A stretch of 64,000 nucleotides of DNA from a virus (taxonomy: Duplodnaviria; Heunggongvirae; Uroviricota; Caudoviricetes). Positions within the stretch are counted from its first letter, which is position 1; the number at the start of each line of letters is the position of its first letter. The stretch covers positions 1 to 64,000 of IMG/VR virus record IMGVR_UViG_3300009551_000002, one strand, 5' to 3'. Positions 28,373 through 61,190 of this stretch are shown here, one piece after another. Under the pieces are notes generated by a model that saw only the letters and a program-made list of their open reading frames with translations, ran no database searches and was not told the origin of the DNA. Made by a program: the position numbers and the translations under genes.

Positions 28373-28448
28373 TGGAACTCCCGGAGCGAGTCGAACGCTC
28401 GTCTACTCTTTAGAAGAGAGTGGCCCTGTTCCGTTGGACGACGGGAGT
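28373..28448 (-). tRNA. tRNA-Arg(UCU)
   Basis: Anticodon stem ACTCT/AGAGT, loop CTTCTAA. Confidence 0.65.
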
Positions 28449-28450
28449 AC

Positions 28451-28524
28451 TGGTCTCTTCGGGACGAGTTGAACGTCCATCGATCGGTTATCAGCCGATT
28501 GCTCTACCGCTGAGCTACGAAGAG
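28451..28524 (-). tRNA. tRNA-Ile(GAU)
   Basis: Anticodon stem ATCGG/CCGAT, loop CTGATAA. Confidence 0.65.
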
Positions 28525-28528
28525 GAAA

Positions 28529-28602
28529 TGGTGCCCCGTGACCGAATCGAACAGTCATTACTGAGATGTAAGCTCAGCGCTCTACCATTGAGCTAACAGG
28601 GC
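28529..28602 (-). tRNA. tRNA-Val(UAC)
   Basis: Anticodon stem CTGAG/CTCAG, loop CTTACAT. Confidence 0.65.
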
Positions 28603-28603
28603 G

Positions 28604-28680
28604 TGGCTCCGGCGATAGGACTCGAACCTATGAATGACCTGATTAACAGTCAGGCGCTTTACCAACTTAGCTACACCGGA
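28604..28680 (-). tRNA. tRNA-Asn(GUU)
   Basis: Anticodon stem CCTGA/TCAGG, loop CTGTTAA. Confidence 0.65.
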
Positions 28681-28690
28681 ACAAAAGAAA

Positions 28691-28767
28691 TGGTCCGGGC
28701 TACTGGATTTCAACCAGTGGTCTCCTGTTCCCAAGACAGGCGGATTAGCAGGCTTTCCTAAGCCCGG
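28691..28767 (-). tRNA. tRNA-Pro(UGG) with unusual T-loop (G56) and D-loop lacking GG
   Basis: Anticodon stem CCTGT/ACAGG, loop CTTGGGA; T-loop TTGAAAT; D-loop AAGCCTGCTAA. Confidence 0.55.
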
Positions 28768-28809
28768 ATATTTACTACAATTACGACATATTCAGTTGTC
28801 AAAGAACTA

Positions 28810-28885
28810 TGGTCGAGCCGCGCAGGATCGAACTGCGATCTCAGCCTTCGGAGGACTGGGTCCTGTCCGTTTGAACGACGGCCCG
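28810..28885 (-). tRNA. tRNA-Arg(CCG)
   Basis: Anticodon stem CAGTC/GGCTG, loop CTCCGAA. Confidence 0.6.
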
Positions 28886-28889
28886 AAAT

Positions 28890-28965
28890 TGGAGTCGGCG
28901 TCGGAACTCGAATCCGAATTTGCAGTTTAGGAAACTGCCGCTCTGTCCAATTGAACTACGCCGAC
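28890..28965 (-). tRNA. tRNA-Arg(CCU)
   Basis: Anticodon stem GCAGT/ACTGC, loop TTCCTAA. Confidence 0.65.
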
Positions 28966-28966
28966 A

Positions 28967-29041
28967 TGGGGTGGCCGGAGGAGCTTGAATCCTCTTTCAC
29001 TGATCCACAGTCAGCGGCTTTACCGTATAAGCTACGGCCAC
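28967..29041 (-). tRNA. tRNA-His(GUG)
   Basis: Anticodon loop CTGTGGA; discriminator C73 typical of His; no encoded G-1. Confidence 0.6.
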
Positions 29042-29044
29042 AGT

Positions 29045-29120
29045 TGGTGGATCTCCGGGGAATCGAACCCCGATTTCTTCGGTGCAAACGAAGCTGCTTC
29101 CCGTTGGCAATGAGAGACCC
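29045..29120 (-). tRNA. tRNA-Ala(UGC)
   Basis: Anticodon stem CTTCG/CGAAG, loop TTTGCAC; G3-U70 alanine identity pair present. Confidence 0.6.
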
Positions 29121-29125
29121 GAAAT

Positions 29126-29187
29126 TGCACCCCACGCTCGGATTCTCACCGATGCACTGTCGACAACGCCTAGGCGCAGACGTGGGG
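29126..29187 (-). other. 62-nt tRNA-like remnant (7-bp acceptor-like stem, lacks one arm) containing two perfect palindromes
   Basis: CCCCACG...CGTGGGG acceptor-like stem ending T-GCA; internal CGCCTAGGCG and TGTCGACA palindromes; T-loop-like TGAGAAT is non-canonical. Confidence 0.25.
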
Positions 29188-29191
29188 AACT

Positions 29192-29266
29192 TGGAGCGAT
29201 CTATCGGACTCGAACCGATGTTGATGCGTTGGCAACGCAACGTCCTGGCCACTAGACGAAGACCGC
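29192..29266 (-). tRNA. tRNA-Gly(GCC)
   Basis: Anticodon loop TTGCCAA; discriminator U73. Confidence 0.55.
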
Positions 29267-29272
29267 GAAAAT

Positions 29273-29346
29273 TGGAGCGAGTAGTGAGAATCGAACTCAC
29301 GTCTGGAGTTTGGAAGACTCCGGCCCTGCCACTGGACGACACCCGC
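29273..29346 (-). tRNA. tRNA-Gly(UCC)
   Basis: Anticodon stem GGAGT/ACTCC, loop CTTCCAA; discriminator U73. Confidence 0.65.
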
Positions 29347-29351
29347 GAAAA

Positions 29352-29426
29352 TGGATCTGGCTCGGAGAATCGAACTCCGGTAGTCGGTTTACGATACCGA
29401 TGCTCTGCCGACTGAGCTAAGCCAGA
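29352..29426 (-). tRNA. tRNA-Thr(CGU)
   Basis: Anticodon stem TCGGT/ACCGA, loop ATCGTAA. Confidence 0.6.
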
Positions 29427-29427
29427 A

Positions 29428-29501
29428 TGGATCTGAGACTGGGACTTGAACCCAGGTCTGCGCCTTACCAAAGCGCCGTTCTGCCGCTGAACTATCCCAG
29501 A
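29428..29501 (-). tRNA. tRNA-Thr(GGU)
   Basis: Anticodon stem GCGCT/GGCGC, loop TTGGTAA. Confidence 0.65.
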
Positions 29502-37155: not shown

Positions 37156-37659
37156 TCACGATATCTCCATAAACTTCGGTGCTTCGTCGCGACCTAATAC
37201 ACAGTGGCATTTGATGAACACGCGACCGTGATTCGGACCTTCCTTCTTCACCTTGAATACTTTCATCGGCTGCTTGCAGTGTGGGCAGTCCTCGATGGCC
37301 AGCGCCATCTTGTAGAGCTTCTTCAACGTGTCGATCAAGCGCTTCTGCCAGCCCGGCGTACGGGTGATGTACTTCGAGATCTTGCTCCCCCACGCCGGAA
37401 ACCCAGGCTCGTGCGCGACGATCCAGCAGCGGATTGAATCCCCGCCTGTTTCAGCAGACCAACCGTTAGAGCGTACCGACGAGCGTACCATGACACCAAA
37501 TCGCGGTTTACCTACAATAGGGACAATATAGGAATATTCACCGTGAAGCAAACCGAGCGGCTTCCAAAGTCGCATATTAGAGCCCTCGCGTGCGATAGGG
37601 AGCGCCGCCTCGAACTGCTCGCGACTGAAAGTGTCTATTGGCATGATTTTTAGATGCAA
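37156..37659 (-). CDS. protein with C-terminal GRF/topoisomerase-type zinc ribbon
   Basis: CPHCKQPMKVFKVKKEGPNHGRVFIKC at the C-terminus. Confidence 0.45.
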   Translation of the reverse strand: MHLKIMPIDTFSREQFEAALPIAREGSNMRLWKPLGLLHGEYSYIVPIVGKPRFGVMVRSSVRSNGWSAETGGDSIRCWIVAHEPGFPAWGSKISKYITRTPGWQKRLIDTLKKLYKMALAIEDCPHCKQPMKVFKVKKEGPNHGRVFIKCHCVLGRDEAPKFMEIS

Positions 37660-37681
37660 TCAAAAGCGGTTTGGTTTCAGG
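37651..37681. repeat. 31-bp palindromic intergenic motif copy
   Basis: TTAGATGCAATCAAAAGCGGTTTGGTTTCAG. Confidence 0.6.
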
Positions 37682-39649: not shown

Positions 39650-39978
39650 TTGGGGAGTTCTCCCTCCAAGTATTCGATCAGATGCTTGGCGTATGCCTTC
39701 ACGTAGTCGTGACCGTCGAAATTGAAGACGTAATGACGGTCGAAGCCTTTAGTGTCGGCATAGGCTTTCTTGAAGCGTTCGAGCTTCTCACGATCCCAAT
39801 TCACGAGATGGTTTTCATTGCTCATTTTGATAGCTTCAGCGTCCAAATATAAAAACACACGATGCCCAGAACGAACGTGATGATGTGAAGCCATAAAATG
39901 GCCTATACCTGCCGCCGCGTTCCCCATCGAGAGGCCGAGGGCCACGATAGAATACAGTAGCCAACGATGTCGGATCAT
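39646..39978 (-). CDS. hypothetical protein
   Basis: 110 aa, N-terminal TM. Confidence 0.45.
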   Translation of the reverse strand: MIRHRWLLYSIVALGLSMGNAAAGIGHFMASHHHVRSGHRVFLYLDAEAIKMSNENHLVNWDREKLERFKKAYADTKGFDRHYVFNFDGHDYVKAYAKHLIEYLEGELPK

Positions 39979-40229
39979 TGTCCTTTACGCTCCTTCCAGC
40001 GCTCTTCGAGCAGCTTCAGAGTTAGCATCTTCGTCTCTTCGGATGGGATCTCGTGGCCCCTCTTAGGCTTGCGGCCCGTCGCCTGGATGGCCTGTATCCA
40101 GGTTTCGTCTTTGATATTGACGCCGGGCTCCCAACCGGCAGCCATCAGCTTGTCGGCAAGATCGCCAGCTTTCTTGACGCGAGCGGCAAAGGCGTAATCG
40201 ATTGGCTCGGTAGGGTCGATAGGAGGCAT
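39975..40229 (-). CDS. hypothetical protein
   Basis: 84 aa. Confidence 0.45.
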   Translation of the reverse strand: MPPIDPTEPIDYAFAARVKKAGDLADKLMAAGWEPGVNIKDETWIQAIQATGRKPKRGHEIPSEETKMLTLKLLEERWKERKGQ

Positions 40230-40253: not shown

Positions 40254-40284
40254 TTAGATGCAATCCGAAGCGGTTAGGTTTCAG
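40254..40284. repeat. 31-bp palindromic intergenic motif copy
   Basis: TTAGATGCAATCCGAAGCGGTTAGGTTTCAG. Confidence 0.6.
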
Positions 40285-42112: not shown

Positions 42113-44020
42113 TCATAATTTCTCTTTCAGAAGTTCCGCAGGTTTCTCAAAACGCTCTTCAGTATTGAGAGCATCTTCGATCTCCGCTTGATATTCTTTC
42201 GTGATGATCGCCCCAGCACCCCCATAGATCTCAGGGATGCCGCCGACGAACGTGATATGCTTCTTAGCCCTAGTAACGGCCACGTAAGCAATGTTGTGCT
42301 CCTGCTCGATCTCCCACTCCTGCGTCGCCATCGGATGCGGCAACAATTCCGGCGCGAGCACGAACACGTTGTCAGCTTCGAGCCCTTTGGTACGATGTAC
42401 AGTACCCAGGATGACGGCATGCTTGGGCGCACCGTCCGCTTCAAAGTCCGCGAAGATCTCACGGATCTTGCTGATGACCTGGGAAGTGAGATCGACGCCG
42501 TCCATTAGCTCACGCAGAGTCTCATAGCGGTCGGTCAATGCGCCAATCAGCGCCTCAGAGTTCTTACGACCATGCAGCCGCGCCGTCTCCTTGCGGTAGT
42601 AGGAATTCAATTCCTTACCGAGTTCGAGAGTAGTCTCGGGGCTACCCAGTTTCTTGATGAGCGCTTCGAGACCAGCGCCGATGTCACGGCCACGAACGAC
42701 AGCTTTAACGCCACGTTGGATCAGTTCGTAGCAGATTGGAATCAGGTGACGATTCACACGGCAGAGAACGAGATCGCCGGGCTGCATGGCGTCGACGGCC
42801 TTGTCCTTGCTTAATTGTTCGTAGGTGCCTTCGATAGCGTCGTCCATGGCGGCAATAACGTCGTCGCCTACGATACGCTTAGCCATCTCGACGTGACTCT
42901 TCGGGCAGCGCCGGGTGACGGTGAGAGGCAATACCTGACAGCCGCGAGGATCGGCGAATAGCATGTCCTCGATGCGGGAAATCGCGCCGGTATCGGCCCC
43001 CCGGAAGCCGTAAATGCTCTGCCAACGGTCCCCAATAGCCATGATGCGACCCTTCGGGCACGCGATCTTGACGAGAGCTTGCTGTGCGCGGTCAGTATCC
43101 TGCGCTTCGTCGACGATGAGGATATCGAACAGGTCCGCTTTGAGATTCAGCACGACTGGTAGCCATGTCATGTCGTCGAAGTCGACGTGTTGAGGGTCGG
43201 CCATGTCCCACAGGATGAGCTTGGGGACGAGACCGAGAGCGAAGTCTTCAATTTTTTCGTCATAGTCGACATTGTGATAGTCGGCTAGATCGATGAGTTG
43301 CTGGCGATCCTGGCCGTCGTAGAGATAGTGCTTGCAGAGACGGACTAGCTGAGAGGCGAGTCGGCACGCCGCGTACCATTGGTCGTCGTCGGCAGTACCT
43401 TTGTCGGTCTTGGCGAGTTGGTCGATGAGACCGTCGAGCTTGTTTTCTTCGAGTTTGACTGTACCGTAATGATTGCGGAGGATCGACAGACCGAGCGAAT
43501 GGTAGGTCATCGCCTTGGCCGAGGCGTCCTTCTCTTTGATGAGACGGAGGACGCCCTGCTGAGCAGACGACGACTTGCCGCTGCCAGCACTCGCGTTGAT
43601 GAGCAAGTGGGATTCGTCGTTGAGCATGGCATCCCAGATGACATCCTGTTCAGGCGAGCCGACAAAGAACTCTTTGCCGGTCATGAGCTTGGTCTGCATC
43701 TCAGCAGCAATGTGCTTGTTGAACGCGATGATGCCGATGCGCGGGCCATTGCCGCCGATGGGCATATTCTTGGTGAAGGGCGAGCCGGTCGCTTTGGGAC
43801 GCTGATTGTATGTCGGCTCGTCGGATCGCGACGTGCCACGGTAGCCCATGCCGCCGCTACCAGGACGGCGAACGAACTTCTGTTTCTTGTCAGCAGGCGT
43901 ACACTCTTCGTGTGAAGTGACACGAGGGGTAACCGTGCTGTCGAGATCGATCATGTCGCCCTCGGAGATTGGGCGACGGCAGTAAGCGCACTTTCCGGGG
44001 AATTTGGCCGGGAATGACAT
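42113..44020 (-). CDS. UvrD/PcrA-like SF1 DNA helicase with N-terminal zinc ribbon
   Basis: Walker A NASAGSGKSS; motif II LIVDEAQD; motif VI-like VTRAKKHITFVG; N-terminal C-x2-C. Confidence 0.7.
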   Translation of the reverse strand: MSFPAKFPGKCAYCRRPISEGDMIDLDSTVTPRVTSHEECTPADKKQKFVRRPGSGGMGYRGTSRSDEPTYNQRPKATGSPFTKNMPIGGNGPRIGIIAFNKHIAAEMQTKLMTGKEFFVGSPEQDVIWDAMLNDESHLLINASAGSGKSSSAQQGVLRLIKEKDASAKAMTYHSLGLSILRNHYGTVKLEENKLDGLIDQLAKTDKGTADDDQWYAACRLASQLVRLCKHYLYDGQDRQQLIDLADYHNVDYDEKIEDFALGLVPKLILWDMADPQHVDFDDMTWLPVVLNLKADLFDILIVDEAQDTDRAQQALVKIACPKGRIMAIGDRWQSIYGFRGADTGAISRIEDMLFADPRGCQVLPLTVTRRCPKSHVEMAKRIVGDDVIAAMDDAIEGTYEQLSKDKAVDAMQPGDLVLCRVNRHLIPICYELIQRGVKAVVRGRDIGAGLEALIKKLGSPETTLELGKELNSYYRKETARLHGRKNSEALIGALTDRYETLRELMDGVDLTSQVISKIREIFADFEADGAPKHAVILGTVHRTKGLEADNVFVLAPELLPHPMATQEWEIEQEHNIAYVAVTRAKKHITFVGGIPEIYGGAGAIITKEYQAEIEDALNTEERFEKPAELLKEKL

Positions 44021-44040
44021 ATATTCTTCTTTCGTTAATT

Positions 44041-44070
44041 TAGATGATAACCGAAGCGCTTTGGTTACAA
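44041..44070. repeat. palindromic intergenic motif copy (variant)
   Basis: TTAGATGATAACCGAAGCGCTTTGGTTACA. Confidence 0.5.
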
Positions 44071-48933: not shown

Positions 48934-49255
48934 CGTCGCGTGCCTTCACGTCGCCGCCATACCGGCCTGTTTCTAAGTCGTCCAGCACTTCGCCGATGGC
49001 GTTCCATAGCGCGTCTGTGTCGCATTCAGCGTGGATCGATTCCAGTTCGGCATCGTCGAGCGATTCGCGATCCCGTAATGCACTCATCAGCGAATGCAGC
49101 ACGCATCCAGCAGACTCGTCGCTGATTGGGCGCGTACAGTTCGGGCAGGTCTTGACGGGCGCGTCGGTCTCATTTTTCCAAGCGTTCTGCGCTCTCTGTA
49201 GGGCACCAGAACAGTCTGATATAAGAGGTTCGGCGTCGCTCATAAAACCTCCCAC
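48875..49255 (-). CDS. hypothetical protein with poly-Asp C-terminal tail
   Basis: ARDDDDDDEDNDDDTDDEPDNR tail. Confidence 0.45.
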   Translation of the reverse strand: MGGFMSDAEPLISDCSGALQRAQNAWKNETDAPVKTCPNCTRPISDESAGCVLHSLMSALRDRESLDDAELESIHAECDTDALWNAIGEVLDDLETGRYGGDVKARDDDDDDEDNDDDTDDEPDNR

Positions 49256-49491
49256 TCACGCATCGACACCATGTCTCGGATCTCAAGCGTAGGCTTGCCG
49301 TCGCGGCCTACACCGTCACTTATCAAAGCAGTGTCGCCGTATGCGACCAGGACCGTATCATCCAGCGGTCCATCGAACCGGACCTTAATCCGCTTGCCGT
49401 CCGGTGACGACTCCATAATCGTGCCGTCGAACTTGACCGGCGAGCCCTTGATGCGGAGCTTGATGCGTTGTTCTCGTTTGTTCGTGTTCAT
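49240..49491 (-). CDS. hypothetical protein
   Basis: 83 aa. Confidence 0.45.
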   Translation of the reverse strand: MNTNKREQRIKLRIKGSPVKFDGTIMESSPDGKRIKVRFDGPLDDTVLVAYGDTALISDGVGRDGKPTLEIRDMVSMREWEVL

Positions 49492-49497
49492 ATCAGA

Positions 49498-49528
49498 TTA
49501 GATGTTATCCAAAGCGGTTAGGTTTCAC
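49498..49528. repeat. 31-bp palindromic intergenic motif copy
   Basis: TTAGATGTTATCCAAAGCGGTTAGGTTTCAC. Confidence 0.6.
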
Positions 49529-49529: not shown

Positions 49530-49547
49530 AAAAAGCATGCTTTTTTT
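49530..49547. terminator. A/T palindrome hairpin (weak bidirectional terminator-like)
   Basis: AAAAAGCATGCTTTTTTT perfect palindrome just after a stop codon. Confidence 0.3.
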
Positions 49548-49559
49548 AGGGATGGGCCT

Positions 49560-49901
49560 TTAGAAACTCTCGATCCATTCCTGATCGATCTTACGCGCGA
49601 TCTCGCTCACGCGTTCGTGCAGGTCGGGATGCGCCCATATCGTCGCGTATCCAGGTCGGACGTGTAGTTCATGTGCGATGCTGGCCGCATGGAGCGCTTC
49701 CGATATCTTGTACAGCGTCTCGCGGTAAGGCGTGAAACAATACTTCACGGCATTCCGCGCCGTGTAGTCGATACGTGGCTCACGTCGCGTTTCGACCTCG
49801 CGACCGTCGCCGTGTAATTGCTGCCCGCCCGGTCCCTCGTATGTTCCGCCGCGCCCGCTCATGCTTGAACCTCCTCTAGCTCCCCACGCCGCGCTACCCA
49901 A
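49560..49901 (-). CDS. hypothetical protein
   Basis: 113 aa. Confidence 0.45.
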   Translation of the reverse strand: MGSAAWGARGGSSMSGRGGTYEGPGGQQLHGDGREVETRREPRIDYTARNAVKYCFTPYRETLYKISEALHAASIAHELHVRPGYATIWAHPDLHERVSEIARKIDQEWIESF

Positions 49902-50670: not shown

Positions 50671-51110
50671 AACAGGTCCCGCTCAATCTGCCGGATATCC
50701 TTTTTACCCGCCGTCCATTCGAGCAGCGCGTCAATCAATGGATTGATCCACGAATCACGATGAAGGCGCGTCGACTCCTTAATCGCTGCTGTTAGTTCGT
50801 CGGTTGTGAACGGCATCGCGAAAGGAAAGTCCATATAGAACTTACCCGGTACTTTGAAGGACGAAAATCCTGCCGATTCGTAGTTAGCTTTGCTTCGGAT
50901 CTCACGGAGGATACGCGCCAGTGTCGAACTCCGCGACGACTCACGCCGCCCCTGCTCAGCTTCTAAGCCGTTCAGGTAGTTGTGCCCCTCCTGCTCACGG
51001 TCGAGTAGTTTGACCGCCGCGTCCAGGTTGTTCAAGACGTAATCGCGGTTACTCTCGAAGTAACCATCGTCGTCAAGATCCAATGGCCGTCTGGGTTTGA
51101 TCTCAATCAT
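50667..51110 (-). CDS. hypothetical protein
   Basis: 147 aa. Confidence 0.45.
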   Translation of the reverse strand: MIEIKPRRPLDLDDDGYFESNRDYVLNNLDAAVKLLDREQEGHNYLNGLEAEQGRRESSRSSTLARILREIRSKANYESAGFSSFKVPGKFYMDFPFAMPFTTDELTAAIKESTRLHRDSWINPLIDALLEWTAGKKDIRQIERDLL

Positions 51111-52630
51111 GCGTTCTCCTGACCGGTCACGCTTAGCGCGTCATTCGTCTGCGGGTCCGGCAACGGATTGACCATCAGTTCAGGCGCGTCAATGCCGTAG
51201 TCGCCACGCGCGACACCTGCTGGGTCCGATGCTGACTCGGACTCGATCCAGTCCTCAGCCTCTTTAAGCGTGTTGAAACGTGCGACGACACGCGGGTCTA
51301 TTCCAGGTGGCGCATAAGTGACCGCGACGGGCGGATTGTTGGGGAGTGCTTCTAACACTCCCGCAAACCGTTCAATCTCTGCTTTGTTGAATAAATGGCA
51401 GCCTGCTCTAAGGTTGCCTTGCGTGTCTATCGAGTCGATAGCATAATGGCCTAGGTGGATCGTGTGCCCGTTGCGATGATACTCACGGCCATTCTGGACG
51501 TATGCCAGCACTACCGGGAGTGCCTTTTTGACGTGCTCTAATGGCACACGCGCGCCTTGTGAGGTCTGGACCTCGTTATCCTTGACGCGTAGGTAGGACG
51601 TGCCCGTCATGTATTGGCTAGGCAGTGAAACGCTTTCACCGGCAAGCCATAACGGTAGCCGCTCCTCGAACGTCTTGCGTTCGTTCTCTTGCTGTCTCGC
51701 CCAGCGCGTGTCACGCGTCGCCCGGCCTTTAAGACGCGCCGCTGCTACAGTCGCGTCATGCGCTACCATAACATCGTTCAGGTAGTCCAGGTCTGCCGGG
51801 ATTTCGACGGCAGGACCGTACCCAAAAAAGTCACCGATGGAATTGACCGCATACACTTTGGTACGCAATTTGGTATACAGTTTGGCCAGCGTGCCGGGAT
51901 TGCGGCTAATCGATCCAAACTCTTTCGCGACCTCATGCGCCTTCGCTACCTTTTTATAGAGTCGGTCGCGCTTCTCAGCCGTGGAAACGTCCCACGTCTT
52001 GATAGAGTCGAGGATATCGAGCATAATACGCGCTTCAGTCTTGCTAAGGCCAGACTGAATCGTCGTCCCTGCATTGACGCCGTTGCGTACCGCCAGCGTC
52101 CAATAGCCGTTGTCGCGCCAGTTGGTATTGCCTTTGTGCGCGACGACGTTACGACCGGCGACCGCATCGACCTCAGACGCCTCTTTATCGCGTCCCACAA
52201 GCGCGTTGAATTTGACCTTGGACGTCTTAACCTTGTACTCGTAGCGATTGTCTGGCCGCGTCCCTTGCAGTCTTTTAATCAGCGCTTCGACGTCTTTACG
52301 CTGGGAGTCGTAGGCGTTCTTTGGATCGCGCCCGCTATCGCGCGATAGATCTTCGACGTAGAACACGGGTACGCCGTCCGGGATCGACCGCCGCACATAG
52401 TTGATGTGCTTCGCCGTCGTGTTAGACCACTTTTGATTCGTGAACAGTACCGCCGCTTCGCCCTTGTCATTCGTGACGTGACGGGCAATCGGGAAATGAC
52501 TGCCATACGAGTAGATCGTATCGCCGCGAAAGTAGAAGTTACCGCCAGGGTTGCGCGCGTCGTCTTGCGTCTTGTGCGCCCATAAGTGGGCTATCTCGTC
52601 GGTCGGAAAAACATGCTTTGTTCTAGCCAT
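51107..52630 (-). CDS. large hypothetical protein (507 aa)
   Basis: Long ORF of ordinary composition; no family recognised. Confidence 0.55.
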   Translation of the reverse strand: MARTKHVFPTDEIAHLWAHKTQDDARNPGGNFYFRGDTIYSYGSHFPIARHVTNDKGEAAVLFTNQKWSNTTAKHINYVRRSIPDGVPVFYVEDLSRDSGRDPKNAYDSQRKDVEALIKRLQGTRPDNRYEYKVKTSKVKFNALVGRDKEASEVDAVAGRNVVAHKGNTNWRDNGYWTLAVRNGVNAGTTIQSGLSKTEARIMLDILDSIKTWDVSTAEKRDRLYKKVAKAHEVAKEFGSISRNPGTLAKLYTKLRTKVYAVNSIGDFFGYGPAVEIPADLDYLNDVMVAHDATVAAARLKGRATRDTRWARQQENERKTFEERLPLWLAGESVSLPSQYMTGTSYLRVKDNEVQTSQGARVPLEHVKKALPVVLAYVQNGREYHRNGHTIHLGHYAIDSIDTQGNLRAGCHLFNKAEIERFAGVLEALPNNPPVAVTYAPPGIDPRVVARFNTLKEAEDWIESESASDPAGVARGDYGIDAPELMVNPLPDPQTNDALSVTGQENA

Positions 52631-52655: not shown

Positions 52656-52686
52656 TTAGATGATATCCAAAGCGCTTAGGATTCAT
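52656..52686. repeat. 31-bp palindromic intergenic motif copy
   Basis: TTAGATGATATCCAAAGCGCTTAGGATTCAT. Confidence 0.6.
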
Positions 52687-52882: not shown

Positions 52883-53088
52883 TTCGAGACCTCCGCAGCT
52901 TCGACTGCTGCGCGTAACTTATTAACGTGCTCCGGTTTTATGTTCGCCATTGTCGGATTACATCCCACGATCCGCACGCGGTCTGCGTCGGTGATCCCTA
53001 CCGCATATCCGCGTCGGGCTAACTCGAAGATCGTCACAAAGTTCTTAGATGCTTCTAGCGCCTTCCGTTGTTTCTGTGTCATACTCAT
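52879..53088 (-). CDS. hypothetical small protein
   Basis: 69 aa. Confidence 0.4.
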   Translation of the reverse strand: MSMTQKQRKALEASKNFVTIFELARRGYAVGITDADRVRIVGCNPTMANIKPEHVNKLRAAVEAAEVSK

Positions 53089-53118
53089 TGGATGCTATCC
53101 AAATCGGTTTGGTTACAA
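53088..53118. repeat. 31-bp palindromic intergenic motif copy
   Basis: TTGGATGCTATCCAAATCGGTTTGGTTACAA. Confidence 0.55.
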
Positions 53119-53642: not shown

Positions 53643-54062
53643 TTATAAATCCTTTTTACGTGCCACGTCTGAAACCGTACACACGTATTCTACGCCATTT
53701 TCTCTACAAAGTAGAGAGATAGGGCCCTTGCGCGATCCATTCTCGTGACGGGTGATAAATGGCAGTCGCCCCATCATTTCAAGCTGTTCGACAATCCTAT
53801 CCTCGAAGTGATTGCCGTAGCCGTACTCGTAGCCGATCTCAGCCGCGATTTCGCCATTGATGAACGCCTTGGCACTAAAGTAGGTATTGCCATAGCGCCT
53901 ATCGAACCATCGGCGACCGATCACAGTGAGAGACCGCACGCGCGGTATAACGACGTGCGCGTCTGACTTGCCGGGAAACATCGTCGCCAATACGCCGCAT
54001 TGGATGCAATTACCGTCCGGCCATACACGCGGGTGCTTGCACTGTTCGTTTGTCATAGTCAT
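53643..54062 (-). CDS. hypothetical protein
   Basis: 139 aa; N-terminal C-x...C-x2-C. Confidence 0.45.
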   Translation of the reverse strand: MTMTNEQCKHPRVWPDGNCIQCGVLATMFPGKSDAHVVIPRVRSLTVIGRRWFDRRYGNTYFSAKAFINGEIAAEIGYEYGYGNHFEDRIVEQLEMMGRLPFITRHENGSRKGPISLLCRENGVEYVCTVSDVARKKDL

Positions 54063-54091
54063 TTGATGCGATCCAAAGCGATTAGGATTCA
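54061..54091. repeat. 31-bp palindromic intergenic motif copy
   Basis: TTTGATGCGATCCAAAGCGATTAGGATTCAG. Confidence 0.6.
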
Positions 54092-54676: not shown

Positions 54677-54895
54677 TGTGTAGATTGCCCTTCATTGGAA
54701 CCACTCGCGCGCCGCGATTCGCCGATATAATTGACCGTCGCGACATTCGGGCGCGCTCTAGTGGTGCCTAGTAGGTCACTCTTTAACTCCTATAAAGTCA
54801 CTTGCGGTTACATAATCCCCCCTTTCGTTTCCCTGGAGCGCATTGCGGGCGCGTCCTCGCGGACATCGTTTCTCCCACAGACTCCAGGCCATGAC

Positions 54896-55114
54896 TTACT
54901 CCGTCAAAAGATCGGCCAGATTCGGGTATATGACCGCGATATCTGCCGGGACTTCCACGTGCCAACCGTTAGCAGTATGAACCGTCGTCAGAATGACATT
55001 TGATCCATGCCGCCGTAGGTAATTGGTCCCACGCCGCGCGTACTCACGCGCGTCTGCTTTGCCGTGCCGTGGGAAACTCACTGTTTTCTGTTCGTCCATA
55101 CTGATTAGATGCAA
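54896..55114 (-). CDS. hypothetical small protein
   Basis: 72 aa. Confidence 0.4.
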   Translation of the reverse strand: MHLISMDEQKTVSFPRHGKADAREYARRGTNYLRRHGSNVILTTVHTANGWHVEVPADIAVIYPNLADLLTE

Positions 55115-55135
55115 ACCAAAGCGCTTAGGATGCAG
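55105..55135. repeat. 31-bp palindromic intergenic motif copy
   Basis: TTAGATGCAAACCAAAGCGCTTAGGATGCAG. Confidence 0.6.
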
Positions 55136-55806: not shown

Positions 55807-56030
55807 CGCTGACCGTCCCTCGCGTCTTTGATAGCCTTCGACGCACGTATCAGGTCATCGTCCGCGACGAATAGCACATACGCATCGGATAACAGGTGCT
55901 CGAAACGAAACGAGATGCCAGCTTCGATCAGCACGTCCGCGTCGTTTTGGCAGCGTCCTTTTGTCGTGTTGCTCACTATGCTGTTTTTGTTCATGCTCAT
56001 TTGATGCGCTCCAAAGCGCTTTGGTTTCAA
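55803..56030 (-). CDS. hypothetical small protein
   Basis: 75-aa track ORF; N-terminus overlaps the motif copy, so the real start is probably the internal MSMNKNS. Confidence 0.35.
   Translation of the reverse strand: MKPKRFGAHQMSMNKNSIVSNTTKGRCQNDADVLIEAGISFRFEHLLSDAYVLFVADDDLIRASKAIKDARDGQR
56000..56030. repeat. 31-bp palindromic intergenic motif copy
   Basis: TTTGATGCGCTCCAAAGCGCTTTGGTTTCAA. Confidence 0.6.
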
Positions 56031-56032: not shown

Positions 56033-56311
56033 TTATTCTGGTAACCTCGACGCTGGATTGTCGCGCACGTTGGCTCTATTGGCATGCGCCGCCTGCTGTA
56101 GCGCTTTGATAGCGCGCGCACGGTCGTAGTACGTGCCGTCCAATAGATGGACGAAACCACCGTCTGGCAGTCGCCGGACTAGCCTGTATATCTTGTCGCC
56201 AGCAAATCCGCGATCATGTTCCAAGGCATACGGCAGCACGCCGATGTCCTCGTAATTTTTCTTGCCACGTTTGAACGGCAATACCCATTTTTGGTTCATA
56301 CAATCCCCCAC
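56033..56311 (-). CDS. hypothetical protein
   Basis: 92 aa. Confidence 0.45.
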   Translation of the reverse strand: MGDCMNQKWVLPFKRGKKNYEDIGVLPYALEHDRGFAGDKIYRLVRRLPDGGFVHLLDGTYYDRARAIKALQQAAHANRANVRDNPASRLPE

Positions 56312-56871
56312 ACTTCAGTGAGTTTGCGCGCGGATTTCACGTATAGCGTGACGTTACCGCGTTCGTTCACATGGACGACGCCGCCGCGAAACCATTTGGG
56401 AACCTCAGACGTATCGGACACTTTAATGTCCGGCATAAACGCGCCAGACTTGAATTCCTGTTCGTCCAGTTCGTCTACTGGCGTAACATCGTCGTCCCAC
56501 GACTCACTGAGCCAGAATCCATAGTCCGCTCCATCGCCAGGGTGCGCGCCAAAGTAGAAGTATGGCGCGGCATACGATTGCAGCGCGTCTTCTAGCGCCG
56601 CTACATCGTCGGAAGCGTCGTCAGTGTCGAAGTAGTTTTCCAGTTCGTCCATGCGCGCCGTAATGTCGCGCACCAGTGCCGCATGCGCCTTGCGCGTCGC
56701 GCGATCCTGCTTAGGACCATACTTCAGTTCGTGCTCAAGCTGAGAGAGAAACGCCGGGATCAAATCCTCAGGTCTCATGGTGCCGCTGGAGACTGAGCCG
56801 ATTGAGTAGCGTGGTTTACGTTTTTTCGTTGCCATGTTTGTTAGATGCTTTCCAAAGCGCTTTGGATTCAC
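56296..56871 (-). CDS. hypothetical acidic protein
   Basis: 191-aa track ORF; real start probably the internal MATKKRKP at 56834, downstream of the motif. Confidence 0.45.
   Translation of the reverse strand: MNPKRFGKHLTNMATKKRKPRYSIGSVSSGTMRPEDLIPAFLSQLEHELKYGPKQDRATRKAHAALVRDITARMDELENYFDTDDASDDVAALEDALQSYAAPYFYFGAHPGDGADYGFWLSESWDDDVTPVDELDEQEFKSGAFMPDIKVSDTSEVPKWFRGGVVHVNERGNVTLYVKSARKLTEVWGIV
56841..56871. repeat. 31-bp palindromic intergenic motif copy
   Basis: TTAGATGCTTTCCAAAGCGCTTTGGATTCAC. Confidence 0.6.
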
Positions 56872-57249
56872 TTAATACGCTTTATCTGTCCCGATCCAAA
56901 AATGGTTGCCCTGTTCAATCTCGGACGCGTCTGCATCTGGGAACTGTGCGCGCCATGCGTCGAACTTGGCATAATACTTGCCCTTGTACAGCATGCGGTA
57001 CTCCAGGTATTGATAGATGCTCATGTCTGCGGGGCCATGAAAGAGATGTTCCGCCAGCTTGCGGACAGCATGTCGCCGATACTGCGGGAGTGATTTCATT
57101 TCCGGACTGTCATAGACCACGCGTTTGAGAAACGCGAAAGTATCAGCGGATGTCCGTTTGAATTGGACCGCTTCTCTGTAGACCTCGCGCACGCGGTCTA
57201 ATAGCGCGCGTTCGTTTTCGTATTGTTTATCCTGTCTGCTACGTTTCAT
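56872..57249 (-). CDS. hypothetical protein
   Basis: 125 aa; motif copy 6 nt upstream of its ATG. Confidence 0.45.
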   Translation of the reverse strand: MKRSRQDKQYENERALLDRVREVYREAVQFKRTSADTFAFLKRVVYDSPEMKSLPQYRRHAVRKLAEHLFHGPADMSIYQYLEYRMLYKGKYYAKFDAWRAQFPDADASEIEQGNHFWIGTDKAY

Positions 57250-57255: not shown

Positions 57256-57286
57256 TTGGATGCGATCCAAAGCGCTTTGGTTTCAG
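57256..57286. repeat. 31-bp palindromic intergenic motif copy
   Basis: TTGGATGCGATCCAAAGCGCTTTGGTTTCAG. Confidence 0.6.
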
Positions 57287-57633: not shown

Positions 57634-57958
57634 GCGCCTTCTCTGTCAACTCACGCCCGATCTTGCCTTGTGGCGTCGCATCGTTCCAACGGTCCCAGAA
57701 TCCAGCGCCGTGACGATTCCGCGTTAGCCAGAAGTCATGTCCAGCGCGCGCGGTGGTTTCGCCAGCTTCGCTATACCAGCGCTCCAACAGGTCCGCGTTT
57801 GCCTGCTCGAAATCCTCGCAGTCCTTGACCATTTGCGCGCGCGCGTCCGCTGATAGTTCGTGTTCGCCGCTGTCTAGTGGTCTGCCGTCGCCATCGGTCG
57901 AACTCCATAGCGCACACTCGATGTACGATTTCGTGAATGTTTCTGTCATTGTGTCCAA
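57578..57958 (-). CDS. hypothetical protein
   Basis: 126 aa; first gene of the minus-strand array. Confidence 0.45.
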   Translation of the reverse strand: MDTMTETFTKSYIECALWSSTDGDGRPLDSGEHELSADARAQMVKDCEDFEQANADLLERWYSEAGETTARAGHDFWLTRNRHGAGFWDRWNDATPQGKIGRELTEKAHAYGEVSLYIGDDGAIYA

Positions 57959-58211
57959 TCCTAACCGCTTTGGTTATGTCTAGTACAATCGTATAGACGC
58001 TTCATAACGTGCTTACGATTCAACTATTTTATCTCACTGATTCCACGCGCGTTAGAGTATCGTACATACTTATAGTTTCGGCGTGCTTACGCCAAACTAC
58101 CCTTATCTATATGACCTATAAAGACTTACGAGTTACCTAGAAAAACTGCCGTTTTATCCTTTGTATGTACGATATACCGGACCCGTCACCGGCTCACTAC
58201 CAGCGCGTTAT

Positions 58212-58241
58212 TTGCACGCTGCTCTAACTGTATGCTATATA
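58212..58241 (+). promoter_or_regulatory. sigma70-like promoter candidate (TTGCAC-18-TATATA) for gene 58278
   Basis: Lies in a lower-GC 320-bp divergent intergenic region; RBS AAGAGG before ATG 58278. Confidence 0.3.
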
Positions 58242-58277
58242 TGGATCGTCTTTTGCTAAGAGGTTGAAAACATTATC

Positions 58278-58592
58278 ATGACTCCTTCAACGCGTTTACG
58301 GCCTTCTGACGAACTCTCTTCCGTACCGTTCACTCGCGAGAGTAGGGACATGTTGCGAGCACTGGCCGTACGCTTTCATGACCTCGCCAGACCATTACCT
58401 GAACACGCCATTGTCGAAGTAGCTTTACGACGCCTTTATAGCGAATACTGCTTATTTGACAGTGAGGTACAACCGACAGACGTGACCTCTACGCGCCTCA
58501 TCAAACGGAATTCACTTCAGGTCTTGCAAGCCCGCTACCGCGAGTACATGAACCTTGAAACTATCGTGATTCGCAAGCGTCGCACGGCCTAA
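58278..58592 (+). CDS. hypothetical protein
   Basis: 104 aa with RBS. Confidence 0.45.
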   Translation: MTPSTRLRPSDELSSVPFTRESRDMLRALAVRFHDLARPLPEHAIVEVALRRLYSEYCLFDSEVQPTDVTSTRLIKRNSLQVLQARYREYMNLETIVIRKRRTA

Positions 58593-58613
58593 GGCAGTCG
58601 TCACCTTAGTCCA

Positions 58614-58642
58614 GGATGGGCCTTTTAGGGATGGGCCTTTAA
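58614..58642. repeat. tandem direct repeat GGATGGGCCTTTTA x2 (also at 49549-49562)
   Basis: GGATGGGCCTTTTAGGGATGGGCCTTTAA. Confidence 0.5.
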
Positions 58643-58985
58643 TTCCGTATGATCGCTTCTGCTAAGTGTTCTTGTTATGTGATACATGCGCGCGTGCGCG
58701 CACTGTAAGAACAGGCAGGTACTCATAGTACCGTACGTACGTTACCATCCTAAGCGCTTAGGATCGTTTGGGTATCGTATGTATCGGATGATCGGTAAGT
58801 TAAGCGATCACGTCGAAGGCGATGCGCCTGCACGTCGCGACCGTCTCTATTTGATGCAATTGTGAGGATATCGGACGCGTGCTAACGCTTCCGGTCGCAT
58901 GTAAAGGACACTAGGCGAGTACAGGACATCGTAAGCGCTTAGGATGCGCGTGGAGCGCACGCGCACGCGTCGCACACCAAATGGA

Positions 58986-59017
58986 AATGGCCATGGGAAC
59001 GTAATCCCATGGCCATT
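58986..59017. repeat. perfect 13-bp inverted repeat with 6-nt spacer
   Basis: AATGGCCATGGGA-acgtaa-TCCCATGGCCATT in a non-coding stretch that also holds alternating GC tracts (GCGCGCGTGCGCGC) and a TACGTACGTA palindrome. Confidence 0.55.
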
Positions 59018-59042
59018 GATGGAACGCGCGTTTATAGCGCGT

Positions 59043-59372
59043 TTATGCGTGTATTGGAGTTTGTTCTACAAATGCGACATTAGCCGGATCTTCAGTCAGC
59101 ATGACCGCTGATTGGTCGAAGATTCCGGCAAGCTTGGAAGCTTCAGCGCGTATGGTGACCTCAGGCGCATTGGTCATGACATCAACCGATAACGATGGTT
59201 CGCTGATAAGCGCACCGTCATGCATCCATCCGCCCATGGCATCATGCGCGGTATATCCGCCGAACGTCTCCGCGATATCAGTCAACGCGCGTTGACGTTT
59301 TGCGGATAGGTCAGTGATTGGACGGTTGGACGCGTCAAGCCCTTGGCCGATAGTGAACGTGACGTGATTCAT
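59043..59372 (-). CDS. hypothetical protein
   Basis: 109 aa. Confidence 0.4.
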   Translation of the reverse strand: MNHVTFTIGQGLDASNRPITDLSAKRQRALTDIAETFGGYTAHDAMGGWMHDGALISEPSLSVDVMTNAPEVTIRAEASKLAGIFDQSAVMLTEDPANVAFVEQTPIHA

Positions 59373-59917
59373 TGATTGTAACCTCCGACTAGTGGGAAGG
59401 ATTCCTGCAAGGTCGCTGCGAGTGGTCGCGCGTCGCGCGCATCGTTCGTGATGATGGATTCAACGTAGGTATCACCAAAGGGATAGATACGCACTGCGAC
59501 GCGCGTAACTGAGCCGATGCGCGTATGGAGTTCGTCAAGGTAGTGGCGTGCGACAGACCGCGCGAGTAGCTCGCACGATATCGTCACCGGGCCAAGTGAG
59601 GCGAAGTAGGTACGGAAGTCTAGGTTATCGAGTAGAAACCCGTTCGAGTCTAGCGCGTCAGACGTATAGTCGATATCGACCATGTAACGAAGCTTGCAGC
59701 GTTCGTCATTGATGCCACAGTGTTTCGTTCCAGGTACGACATTGATGGTGAAATCGTCCGAGGAATGCTGGTGGTAAGTGTAGGTCATATCGCCACACCT
59801 AACGCGTGCAGGATCGACAGACAGAAGACGATACAGAAGATCGTCGCGACGATGATACTGGTAATCCATGACATGACTAACGATTCTCCTTCCGGTATTC
59901 ATTGAACGCGTACCCAA
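59369..59917 (-). CDS. T-fold protein resembling 6-pyruvoyl-tetrahydropterin synthase/QueD (catalytic Cys-His-Gly-His motif not conserved)
   Basis: GFLLDNLDFRTYFASL and ISCELLARSVARHYLDEL parallel QueD GWIIDFAELKAAF and TSEVLAKWIWDQV; CxxxHGH is replaced by CGINDER. Confidence 0.3.
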   Translation of the reverse strand: MGTRSMNTGRRIVSHVMDYQYHRRDDLLYRLLSVDPARVRCGDMTYTYHQHSSDDFTINVVPGTKHCGINDERCKLRYMVDIDYTSDALDSNGFLLDNLDFRTYFASLGPVTISCELLARSVARHYLDELHTRIGSVTRVAVRIYPFGDTYVESIITNDARDARPLAATLQESFPLVGGYNQ

Positions 59918-60095
59918 AGCCGGATACCAGCAGCGCTACTAACAGGTGTGCAAAGTGAGTCATGGCTATATCTCCTCCGCGACGCCAACGAACATAATCG
60001 CGATATCCGCGATTACCCAAAGTATGGAGACGATCGTCAAGACTACTAGGTGGGTCTCGTATGCGGTCCCAGCACACGTCGCGAGTTCGCACCAT
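59877..60095 (-). CDS. small membrane protein
   Basis: C-terminal TM helix. Confidence 0.3.
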   Translation of the reverse strand: MVRTRDVCWDRIRDPPSSLDDRLHTLGNRGYRDYVRWRRGGDIAMTHFAHLLVALLVSGFGYAFNEYRKENR

Positions 60096-60195
60096 AACCG
60101 AGACCGTTTAGTAATCTTGACGACCTTGGCAGCATGACGAACGTGCAATGGTGCCGTGTGCAAGGGTGCCGTGTGGTGTTGTTTCGCGCGTGCCA

Positions 60196-60381
60196 TTAGT
60201 TGACCTCCTCATTGTTCATGTTGGTAGCAGGCGCATCATTGAGAGGTAGCGCGTTCGTGCTGTACTCGCAATTGCAGAGTAGGTCTACCAGTGATGTCAG
60301 CAGGTTTATCAGGTGTTGTCTCATATTCGTGGTTCCTTTCGTCGTACGGGAATAGACTACAGATAGACAGACGCAATCCAA
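60196..60381 (-). CDS. hypothetical small protein
   Basis: 61 aa. Confidence 0.3.
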   Translation of the reverse strand: MDCVCLSVVYSRTTKGTTNMRQHLINLLTSLVDLLCNCEYSTNALPLNDAPATNMNNEEVN

Positions 60382-60397
60382 AGCGCTTTGGTTGCAT
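60370..60397. repeat. palindromic intergenic motif copy (core)
   Basis: GACGCAATCCAAAGCGCTTTGGTTGCAT. Confidence 0.55.
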
Positions 60398-60653
60398 ATT
60401 AATTCATTAAAGTTAATTCATACTTGTACACTTACCTCGGCGCGACCGGTCGCCGTCCCATATACCCCTGCAATTGTGATGTAATTCCCGAGCACGTTTC
60501 GTGCCATTCCAGACCCACTCGGTTAAAAATAGGATGTTTTGACCGAGACCGGCGCTAGGACTCTCACTCGCAATTTTGAAAATATAAACGGTACATACGA
60601 AATGCGAAGAAATGGGCTCTCGATTTTTTCACAAAATATGAAAATATCAAATC

Positions 60654-61190
60654 GTGCTCACGATATCGATGACGATGCTGGCCGTGACGGTGGCGGTGGT
60701 AGCTCGTGCGTTCGCTGGGATGCTTGTATATAGGGCCTCGTACTCATGGCGCTTCGCGCCACTCGTACTCGGCCCATCAATTATTACTTCTCTTCTCTTA
60801 TACTGTTGCTGTATGGCAGCTAAGTGGTATTCCGAATACGTTCGGACAGAACACTGGGAGAGACTACGGAAGCTCACTTATGCAGCCGCAGGCTACGCTT
60901 GCTCCAATCCATGGTGTCGCGCGAGAGGTCAGCTAGTTTGTCATCACCTTACTTACGAACGTCTCGGGCATGAACGATTAAGCGATTTGAGTGCGCTGTG
61001 TTCGACCTGTCACGATGCCGCGCACAGGACGAGACGACCACCGTACATGATAGAAATCATTTCCAGACCGCAGCCGCCAGTCATAGTGGCGATGATTTTG
61101 CGGCAAGAACTCATGACTTTACGGCAAAAGCGTCGGCCTCAAGGATGGGGCATCGCGCGGCGTAGTCGTCGGTCTTTGCGTTGGGTATGA
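60654..61190 (+). CDS. HNH endonuclease-domain protein (N-terminal hydrophobic segment)
   Basis: CSNPWCRARGQLVCHHLTYERLGHERLSDLSALCSTCHDAAH; start may be an internal Met. Confidence 0.5.
   Translation: MLTISMTMLAVTVAVVARAFAGMLVYRASYSWRFAPLVLGPSIITSLLLYCCCMAAKWYSEYVRTEHWERLRKLTYAAAGYACSNPWCRARGQLVCHHLTYERLGHERLSDLSALCSTCHDAAHRTRRPPYMIEIISRPQPPVIVAMILRQELMTLRQKRRPQGWGIARRSRRSLRWV

Follow-up and report, generated by a model that had tools for sequence, protein, structure and literature searches.

Positions 57959 to 60650 of a 64,000-nt stretch of DNA from an uncultured tailed phage (IMG/VR record IMGVR_UViG_3300009551_000002, positions 1 to 64,000; the whole stretch is called the window below) were analyzed together with the corresponding loci of related phages. 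The window belongs to a metagenomic contig of 119,375 bp (ENA ERZ27252311, k141_4886077), and with the 9.6 kb on its right, to 73.6 kb, ∼74 kb of phage DNA was examined. Genes run rightward from 1 to 24.8 kb, leftward from 29.9 to 57.95 kb and rightward again from 60.65 kb. The region between the last two blocks is read here, with moderate confidence and from sequence comparison, as a transcription control hub. Its most interesting content is a promoter-operator cassette, most copies of which lie outside 57959-60650.

Homologues of a 104-aa protein encoded in the hub (58-76% identity) were found on contigs L213-L222. These share the order leftward block, rightward gene of 102-112 aa, gap, leftward 109-aa gene with its followers and rightward block, the last carrying BubE-, PadR-, ThyX- and DUF87-type genes, and their DNA is ∼65-80% identical to the window. 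Megablast of the hub region matched no known phage and revealed no close cultured phage. A search of IMG/VR with the 104-aa protein returned nothing, one with a neighbouring 126-aa protein returned 80 loci with synteny of at most two genes and without the palindromic motif described below, and a search with the helicase protein returned only relatives, at ∼35% identity. Near-identical copies of the phage are present in other samples; contigs carrying exact window proteins all belong to the same phage, at 99.99% identity, and so provide no strain diversity.

Genes, predicted promoters and terminators of the proposed hub

Four transcription units would meet at the hub: a long leftward block with the promoter P-L (58022-57993) at its head, a 104-aa gene that stands alone in the rightward direction behind a promoter of the ordinary sigma-70 type (58212-58240), a mini-operon of five leftward genes (60324-59043) and a rightward block starting at 60654. 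A sequence-only reading of the window had taken 57959-60650 as repeat-rich, non-coding DNA. Two non-coding stretches are present, but ∼1.6 kb of the 2.7 kb consists of genes, and 59043-60324 is coding, with five small genes on the minus strand. The lower-GC stretch described in that reading as promoter-like is real (57959-58277, 319 bp, 41.4% GC against 54.0% for the window) and holds two conserved divergent promoters. It had been placed next to the non-coding DNA; both exist, but they are separated by the conserved 104-aa gene (58278-58592, plus strand).

The predicted promoter P-L (57993-58022, minus strand) is of the cassette class and is composed of TGAATC (58022 to 58017), 19 nt and TCTAT (57997 to 57993), in a block that is nearly invariant in an alignment of 5-6 related phages. 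The putative operator O-L (ATCCTAACCGCTTTGGTT, 57958-57975) lies between P-L and the ATG of the first leftward gene (57950), is conserved in relatives and supplies with its right half the Shine-Dalgarno sequence of that gene (TTAGGAT, minus strand). The rightward promoter is composed of TTGCAC (58212-58217), 17 nt and CTATAT (58235-58240) on the plus strand, and six phages show hardly any variation in TATGCTATATATGGATCGT and the TTGC element. The promoter agrees with the S. meliloti consensus CTTGAC-N17-CTATAT (PMC2873474), which hints at an alphaproteobacterial host. A generic sigma-70 promoter scan was uninformative, giving fewer matches than shuffled sequence and missing the conserved promoters.

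A second motif, TATCGT(R)(Y)(R)TAC (also TATCGTRYRTAC), is specific to the hub, with six copies against 1.4 expected, all within 58058-60602. The first two copies, both TATCGTACATAC (58058-58069, plus strand, and 58163-58174, minus strand), form a perfect 12-bp inverted pair, each ∼35-40 bp upstream of one of the divergent promoters, the second ∼38 bp upstream of the rightward -35 element. Relatives carry TATCGTGTGTAC at the place of the first copy and also at that of a third (TATCGTATGTAT, 58773-58784, plus strand). The palindrome CGTACGTACG (58732-58741) belongs to the same motif, which probably binds a second, hub-specific regulator.

The 104-aa protein, product of the lone rightward gene of the hub, is a candidate regulator. 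No sequence match to it was found in Pfam, PHROG, NCBIfam or the PDB. Its structure model was of low confidence (predicted local distance difference test score, pLDDT, 60), in which a short N-terminal segment and two helices precede a long C-terminal helix, and was too poor for a fold search. Directly after the stop codon of the gene lies the tandem GGATGGGCCTTT(TA) repeat (58614-58648, plus strand), whose two GGCC cores can form a 5-bp stem followed by TTTAATT. Relatives keep GG(A/G)TGG(T)GCCTTT and then a T-run at this site, and the repeat is regarded as a weak, terminator-like hairpin. The GGATGGGCCTTT copies listed by the sequence-only reading were recovered at 58614, 58629 and 49550, three matches against 0.17 expected. 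A longer exact repeat of 19 nt, TTTTAGGGATGGGCCTTTA, occurs at 49544-49562 and 58623-58641, 9 kb apart; each of the two comes directly 3' of a stop codon, but relative to the gene their orientations are opposed, and on the minus strand an A/T-rich palindrome, AAAAAGCATGCTTTTT, and a cassette stand after the 49.5-kb copy.

The perfect 13-bp inverted repeat (58986-58998/59005-59017) was confirmed. With its 6-nt loop and the TCCATTTGG that follows, it makes up a minus-strand element at 58975-59017, directly behind the 109-aa gene's stop codon. Six phages each carry, at this site, a GC-rich stem of 12-13 bp that is their own, with a T-rich tail, for example TTTCGTTTG, and 4 of 9 aligned pairs keep their pairing through two-sided changes. 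On this comparative evidence the element is the intrinsic terminator of the mini-operon. Together with the GGCC-repeat element it would form a pair of convergent terminators insulating the 450 bp between them.

The mini-operon itself (59043-60324, minus strand) comprises five small genes of 109, 139, 29, 76 and 42 aa, with synteny in relatives. At its head (60367-60396, minus strand) stand TGCAAC, a palindrome (60376-60393) and TCTGT, then a leader with GAAAGGAA and the ATG at 60324. The heads in relatives have the palindrome within a sigma-70-type promoter, TTGAC(A/G)-N16-TA(A/G)GAT. The small gene 59966-60196 contains a 15-nt tandem repeat, GTGCAAGGGTGCCGT, in 2.2 copies (60143-60175). Beyond the mini-operon, the second divergent intergenic region (60398-60653, 41.8% GC) includes a conserved non-coding block (60472-60660) with two TGAAAATAT..AA.CGT(A/G)C units, three in the relative L217. 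Its identity among relatives, 72-88%, is above that of neighbouring genes, and promoters of the rightward block or of the mini-operon are probably located in it. Within the rightward block a PadR-family regulator gene, conserved in all relatives, stands alone on the minus strand; on L211 it occupies 11553-11966, equivalent to 64976-65389 in window coordinates, and the palindrome was not found upstream of it.

The palindrome and its cassette

The repeated motif whose copies had been followed to 60.4 kb does have its last copy there (60376-60393), but the copies are complete palindromes of 14-18 bp, not half-sites. The pattern (AT)CC(A/T)AAGCGCTT(A/T)GG(AT) gave 11 matches as an 18-mer against 0.02 expected, and 18 as its 14-mer core against 0.07. 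Nor do the copies form a cluster peculiar to the hub: all but one or two fall between 37.6 and 60.4 kb, in the leftward block and the hub, and none was found in the rightward blocks, out to 73.6 kb. The hub has four, at 57958-57975, 58747-58764, 58928-58945 and 60376-60393. A metagenome scan with an extended motif gave 43 matches, all attributable to chance except that on L097, a Joint Genome Institute (JGI) fragment of the same phage. The sole difference between L097 and the window is a 39-bp in-frame indel at 49028-49066.

Eleven palindromes of the window lie inside a 30-31-nt minus-strand cassette directly upstream of a minus-strand gene. The cassette reads TG(A/C/T)AAC-palindrome-CATC(T/A/C)AA, or as a block TGaAa-CCaAAgCGCTTtGG-ATnG-CATCtAAt; relatives have TGAAAC or TGCAAC, C(A/C)TAAGCGCTTAGG and AT(A)CATCTAAC. 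A census of the window and its relatives counted 51 palindromes in seven loci, 24 of them in full cassettes, which without exception lie on the coding strand. Between TGAAA and CATC these cassettes have 18 nt in 23 cases and 17 nt in the remaining one. In 16 of the 24 an ATG follows the TCnAA box after 5-6 nt without a Shine-Dalgarno sequence, whereas the other eight have a leader of 17-28 nt, mostly with AGGAG, AAAGGA or similar. A short fixed distance to ATG without a Shine-Dalgarno sequence, set against longer leaders with one, points to the box as a -10 element with a fixed start site. The idea that the TGA of TGAAAC is kept as the stop codon of the upstream gene was rejected, as the real stop lies elsewhere in several copies.

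The ATGs of the cassettes match the starts of called genes, a UvrD-type helicase gene and that of a 507-aa protein among them. Nearest the hub, cassettes were located at 57256-57285 (ATG 6 nt after the box; gene 56872-57249), 56841-56870 (5 nt; gene 56296-56835), 56000-56029 (5 nt), 55105-55134 (5 nt; an uncalled 67-aa open reading frame at 54896-55099), 54062-54091 (5 nt; gene 53643-54062/54056) and 53088-53117 (5 nt), all on the minus strand like those that follow. The cassette at 52656-52685 is separated from the 507-aa gene (51107-52630) by a 25-nt leader with AAAGGA, that at 49498-49527 has its ATG 6 nt after the box (gene 49240-49491), and that at 44040-44069 has a 19-nt leader with GAAAGAAG before the UvrD-type helicase gene (42113-44020). 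The leftmost two are at 40254-40283, with a 24-nt leader (GAAAGAG) and the gene 39975-40229, and at 37650-37679, with the ATG (37644) 5 nt after the box. The uncalled 67-aa reading frame and its full cassette occupy a second stretch without a called gene (54677-55124, 448 bp), where gene callers seem to miss small leaderless genes.

The -10 element of sigma-E/AlgU-type promoters is TCnAA-like. In promoters for sigma factors of the extracytoplasmic function (ECF) type, the -35 element contains an AAC motif, tgaAAC for several B. subtilis ECF sigmas, and spacers of 14-17 nt are optimal (PMC5758882). An AAC-type -35 element, TG(A/C/T)AAC or TGAAT(C), is present in all 24 cassettes and as TGAATC in P-L, and CATC(T/A/C)AA provides the short -10 element at a fixed distance. 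The cassette is thus probably an ECF-sigma-type promoter with an operator in its spacer, giving leaderless mRNAs in the short-distance copies. TG(A/C/T)AAC would serve as the -35 element and TC(T/A/C)AA as the -10 element, with a spacer of ∼19 nt filled by the palindrome, and the transcription start would fall 5-6 nt beyond the box, in most copies on the ATG itself.

Identical palindromes were also seen in an unrelated viral contig, L081 (IMGVR_UViG_3300036832_000509), at 8195-8232 and 8782-8815; it was the only IMG/VR contig with the exact 18-bp sequence. Both copies lie in the spacers of TTGCAT-N17/18-TATAAT promoters upstream of small zinc-ribbon-like genes. A promoter spacer, as in L081 and at the mini-operon heads of the relatives, is where operators usually lie. 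An operator for a dimeric protein accounts for all placements of the palindrome, namely in the gene-free gap, below P-L, in promoter spacers and in the cassettes. The palindrome would bind a dimeric regulator, with hub copies below P-L, at the head of the mini-operon and, twice, in the gap, and the bound protein would gate the cassette promoters.

A candidate for the sigma factor that would read the cassettes is encoded at 62221-63075 (plus strand, 284 aa), 2-4 kb to the right of the hub in this phage family. The protein is a divergent member of the sigma-70 family, ECF-like, and a probable sigma factor by homology. It matched the NCBIfam model sigma70-ECF TIGR02937 over sigma-4 only (E 2.9e-6, 27 bits, cut-off 42.9). 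The L217 homologue (165 aa) aligned from sigma-2 to sigma-4 with positions 33-157 of the 162 in a SigE-family model (E 5.5e-7, below the cut-off), and the L213 homologue (157 aa) gave a sigma70-ECF or SigE-family match with E 3.3e-8. Pfam Sigma70_r4 scored 21-22 bits against a cut-off of 24.1. When a profile of these three sigma-like proteins was searched against the PDB, 14 of 15 matches were sigma factors (E 1e-3 to 0.7). An AlphaFold model of the 284-aa protein (pLDDT 66) gave a Foldseek list dominated by sigma factors, every E being above 0.3. Made from the rightward block, the sigma-like protein would direct host core polymerase to the cassettes.

Several points weigh against this interpretation of the cassette and the hub. 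The spacer, ∼19 nt from TGAAAC to TCTAA, exceeds the 14-17 nt of ECF promoters. The bipartite pattern without the palindrome does not occur above chance, P-L being the only palindrome-free match that does, and the three cassette elements could form a single site for something else. No palindrome-binding protein was identified, and the model of the 104-aa protein is of low confidence. Every sigma match falls below its curated cut-off, and no Foldseek match was significant. In other phages, homologues of the sigma-like protein are encoded between terminase and portal genes, a location that leaves room for another DNA-binding role. The role of the 450-bp gap, too, could be any of several. The start sites, the sigma factor that would read them, the palindrome binder and the choice between repression and activation are all inferred from sequence. 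Two of the homologues in other phages, on L223 (4299-5210) and L224 (7811-8395), are 45-55% identical and have as neighbours a large terminase gene of the lambda type on one side and the portal gene on the other; no cassettes were found in the DNA fetched for these contigs.

The idea of a transcriptional switch, one of three uses proposed in the sequence-only reading, nevertheless held up best: comparison of six related loci gave two conserved divergent promoters, two terminators, operators heading every leftward unit and a nearby sigma-like gene.

The proposed palindrome binder and possible roles of the gap

The palindromes might be operators of a host sugar repressor of the LacI family (ThuR/AglR type), which would gate the promoters or be titrated by them. 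This is unlikely, though with a real residual chance. LacI-family sites are even palindromes with a central CG, the ThuR motif being natcnAAAnCGnTTTngatt and the AglR motif nnntcAAAGCGCTTTgannn (PMC4052901). The window palindrome has this form (even, within the 16-22 nt range, 18 bp with a GCGC centre), and its consensus, ATCCAAAGCGCTTTGGAT, fits the ThuR motif and is close to that of AglR. A scan of one bacterial genome per species found 84 loci, nearly all with the exact 18-mer ATCCAAAGCGCTTTGGAT, in ∼80 genomes, mostly of Rhizobiales and Rhodobacterales. These sites lie in promoter regions, often ∼29 nt after TTGACA, and have as neighbours LacI-family regulators (23 loci), sugar-binding proteins and amylosucrase.

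A LacI-type helix-turn-helix was not found in the 74 kb of phage DNA, nor in six-frame translations of the window, L082 and L081 (best E 3.2), as expected if the repressor is the host's. The same 18-mer in two canonical promoters of the unrelated L081, and the rhizobial fit of the hub's rightward promoter, point the same way. Against a host repressor, the relatives mainly use CCTAAGCGCTTAGG, with TAAG/CTTA in place of AAAG, a form rare in bacteria (2-3 of the 84 loci). A regulator gene could lie in the ∼45 kb of the contig outside the 74 kb, and two candidate regulators are encoded by the phage itself, the 104-aa protein and the PadR-family protein, both conserved in all relatives.

An extension of this alternative, which must be called doubtful, is that a large phage of lytic type has placed a host LacI-family operator in the spacers of about a dozen sigma-specific, leaderless promoters and at the start of the leftward operons, so that expression of a 20-kb block depends on the carbohydrate status of the host or the repressor is titrated. 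In the titration variant, the repressor would be sequestered by the growing number of phage genomes, and sugar uptake by the host would be turned on. The sharing of an operator-in-promoter arrangement with L081 suggests that such a strategy could be recurrent. The T-variant of the palindrome, ATCCTAAGCGCTTAGGAT, was also seen with identical 40-nt flanks at 2283-2300 of L170 and 6308-6325 of L198, contigs of metagenome-assembled genomes from unrelated phyla (Smithella and Verrucomicrobia); the identical flanks suggest a shared mobile element or a binning artefact.

The gap between the 104-aa gene and the mini-operon is, as had been described, 450 bp without a called gene (58593-59042). Five related phages also have no gene there, over 385-509 bp. 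A hidden small protein was considered and rejected, as matches span several frames and both strands and no position of an open reading frame is kept. The conserved parts are the terminators at either end, alternating-CG tracts, a GTAC palindrome, one or two operators per side and ATT(T/A/C)GATG. The left CG tract is TGCGCGCGTGCGCGCAC (58687-58703), within which the alternating GCGCGCGTGCGCGC described before was found at 58688-58701. The TACGTACGTA palindrome reported from the gap is absent; the palindrome at that place is CGTACGTACG, preceded by GGTAC-N5-GTACC (58718-58741 together), of which relatives keep GTAC-N3-5-GTAC. A perfect 18-bp operator candidate, ATCCTAAGCGCTTAGGAT (58747-58764), and a second 181 bp away, ATCGTAAGCGCTTAGGAT (58928-58945), are both without promoter flanks, and L213 has two tandem copies at the place of the second. 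A right CG-rich tract (58946-58976) follows, with a local hairpin fold.

ATT(T/A/C)GATG is the best-conserved string of the gap, present in all seven sequences, and equals the CATCnAAT box of the cassette on the minus strand. In the window it forms an orphan -10-like box, CATCAAAT (ATTTGATG on the plus strand; 58849-58856, minus strand), invariant in relatives. L217, L221 and L222 have GAATC 19-20 nt upstream of it, completing a leftward promoter with no gene downstream; the window box is without that -35 element. The gap might serve as a regulatory spacer, give rise to a small RNA antisense to the 104-aa gene, or act as an origin primed by transcription.

Origins of this last kind are known from phage T4, where oriF and oriG combine a middle promoter with a downstream unwinding element. 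That the hub, and especially the gap, is or contains a replication origin, perhaps primed by transcription from the orphan box, is improbable overall. A GC-skew plot placed the cumulative minimum at ∼58.55 kb, which agrees with the origin suggested in the sequence-only reading, and whole-gene skew tracks position and not orientation in 8 of 10 discordant genes; however, third-codon-position skew has no clean switch, and the test is partly circular, the position boundaries having been taken from the skew curve itself. The size-conserved, non-coding state of the gap in six phages, its fence of convergent terminators and its invariant promoter-like box without a gene downstream would all suit an origin. 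So would its alternating-CG tracts and strong folding (z-scores -4.8 and -6.2), but the fold comes mostly from the inverted elements, that is the operators, the terminator and the CG tracts, and conserved promoters explain the 41% GC stretches. DnaA boxes are absent from the region, their count in the window being below chance, as are iteron arrays; no replication-initiator gene is adjacent, and the palindromes are dispersed over 23 kb at gene starts and not clustered.

With the palindrome as operator of the cassettes, the protein bound to it might activate instead of repress. An activator of the MerR kind, which twists an over-long spacer so that -35 and -10 elements align, would suit the non-optimal spacer of ∼19 nt with its dyad centred near -24/-25, and CueR activates by this logic at a 19-bp spacer (PMC5758882). 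This possibility is given a low probability. The palindrome also lies below P-L, alone in the gap and in sigma-70-type spacers of a normal 16-18 nt, placements that suit a repressor better, and no MerR-family protein was detected among the proteins scanned.

Very unlikely is a role as RNA, in which a hairpin and the box downstream of it would govern processing, stabilisation or translation initiation on a single leftward transcript. The cassette is indeed always found on the coding strand, in the interval from one stop codon to the start codon that follows, and at the first leftward gene the right half of the palindrome is the Shine-Dalgarno sequence. The arms of the palindrome agree above shuffles (300 complementary cells against 284), which is also expected of a symmetric dimer site whose half-sites shift together between phages. 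But complementarity fails in 26% of arm cells, and a stem of only 5-7 bp would be usable, on which grounds a hairpin function was judged unlikely. Flank-less copies occur in non-coding DNA and in the promoter spacers of other units and of another phage, and an ATG 5-6 nt past the box without a Shine-Dalgarno sequence is predicted by a transcription start, not by a processing site. The cassette matched no Rfam family; at gathering thresholds the Rfam search yielded tRNAs and nothing else, and a limit of E ≤ 1 brought no credible match within 57.8-60.8 kb.

A packaging (pac or cos) site, favoured by nothing more specific than the way repeats and inverted repeats cluster in non-coding DNA, is scarcely credible: no terminase gene was found in the window or the next 9.6 kb, that is within the 74 kb examined, which makes such a site unlikely, each repeat has a more specific role backed by conservation (terminator, operator or promoter), and contigs from several samples read straight through the region.

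Genome setting, precedents and meaning

Among the products of the window are a DNA polymerase of family A, a UvrD-type helicase and a uracil-DNA glycosylase domain, the genes for DNA polymerase and helicases lying at 0-14 kb and 42-44 kb; to its right are genes for ThyX, a GH25 lysozyme and peptide deformylase. The glycosylase-superfamily domain is N-terminal in a 510-aa protein (7306-8838), and an unusual 593-aa fusion of a glycosyltransferase with a sulfotransferase is encoded at 20259-22040. PHROG matches in the leftward block were almost exclusively with families of unknown function. There are 33 tRNA genes on the window, the bulk of them at 24.9-29.5 kb: 32 on the minus strand (24880-29501) and one on the plus strand (19428-19505). 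A tRNA with a CUA anticodon (25021-25096) is of amber-suppressor type and was called Pyl by ARAGORN, and two others (19428-19505 and 24880-24953) received odd four-base anticodon calls; stop codons could be reassigned in part of the genome.

The closest precedent for the favoured reading, a sigma-like protein acting on cassettes in one gene block, is Salmonella phage 7-11. Its gp47 and gp36 of coliphage phiEco32 are likewise divergent phage sigma factors, of the sigma-70 family or ECF-like, with a conserved promoter motif upstream of one temporal or strand-defined block of genes and early genes on host sigma-70. The promoters read by the 7-11 sigma factor are bipartite, GTAAtg-(16)-aCTA, and lie upstream of late genes (PMC8948821). 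Here the motif is TGAAAC...TCTAA, the ∼19-nt spacer contains an 18-bp palindrome, most copies would be leaderless, and the sigma factor is recognised by weak homology. Bacterial ECF promoters (B. subtilis sigma-W, -X, -M and -V; E. coli sigma-E) share the AAC-type -35 and short -10 elements, but the spacer here is 2-5 nt longer than 14-17 nt and has a conserved dyad within it. The ThuR/AglR operators of Alphaproteobacteria are likewise even palindromes with a central CG, and the sequence of the window consensus occurs near LacI-family genes; in the phage, however, there are at least 18 copies, they lie in promoter spacers, and a LacI-family gene was not found.

Multi-copy sites of other kinds are known from phages. 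The stoperators of Cluster A mycobacteriophages, bound by L5 gp71, are 13-bp asymmetric, oriented sites that block elongation in the lysogen. They resemble the palindromes in that many copies of one site run through one direction of transcription, in short intergenic gaps and at the main early promoter; the palindromes differ in being symmetric and set in promoter-like cassettes, and neither an integrase nor an immunity repressor was seen. The start-associated sequences of Cluster K phages include a ribosome-binding site, and the promoter early stem-loop (PeSL) elements of T4-type phages join a sigma-70 early promoter to a terminator-like hairpin. Like these, the cassettes are short conserved modules directly upstream of many small genes and may be points of recombination, but sequence and architecture differ and most cassettes are without a ribosome-binding site. 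Phage sigma factors with their own promoters and multi-copy operators are thus known; new is the combination of an ECF-like promoter, a spacer operator and a leaderless start with a sugar-regulon operator sequence.

For annotation, the cassette fixes the exact starts of small genes that callers miss or start wrongly, and repeat content alone is here no ground for labelling a region as origin or pac site. The identity of the palindrome with a sugar-regulon operator makes it possible that a virulent phage senses host nutrition through a host repressor, for which there are few precedents. If the proposed reading is true, a single cassette would unite an alternative-sigma promoter, an operator and a leaderless start in a compact and directly testable design, and it would add a new promoter class for phage sigma factors and an example of an operator in the promoter spacer from outside the model phages.

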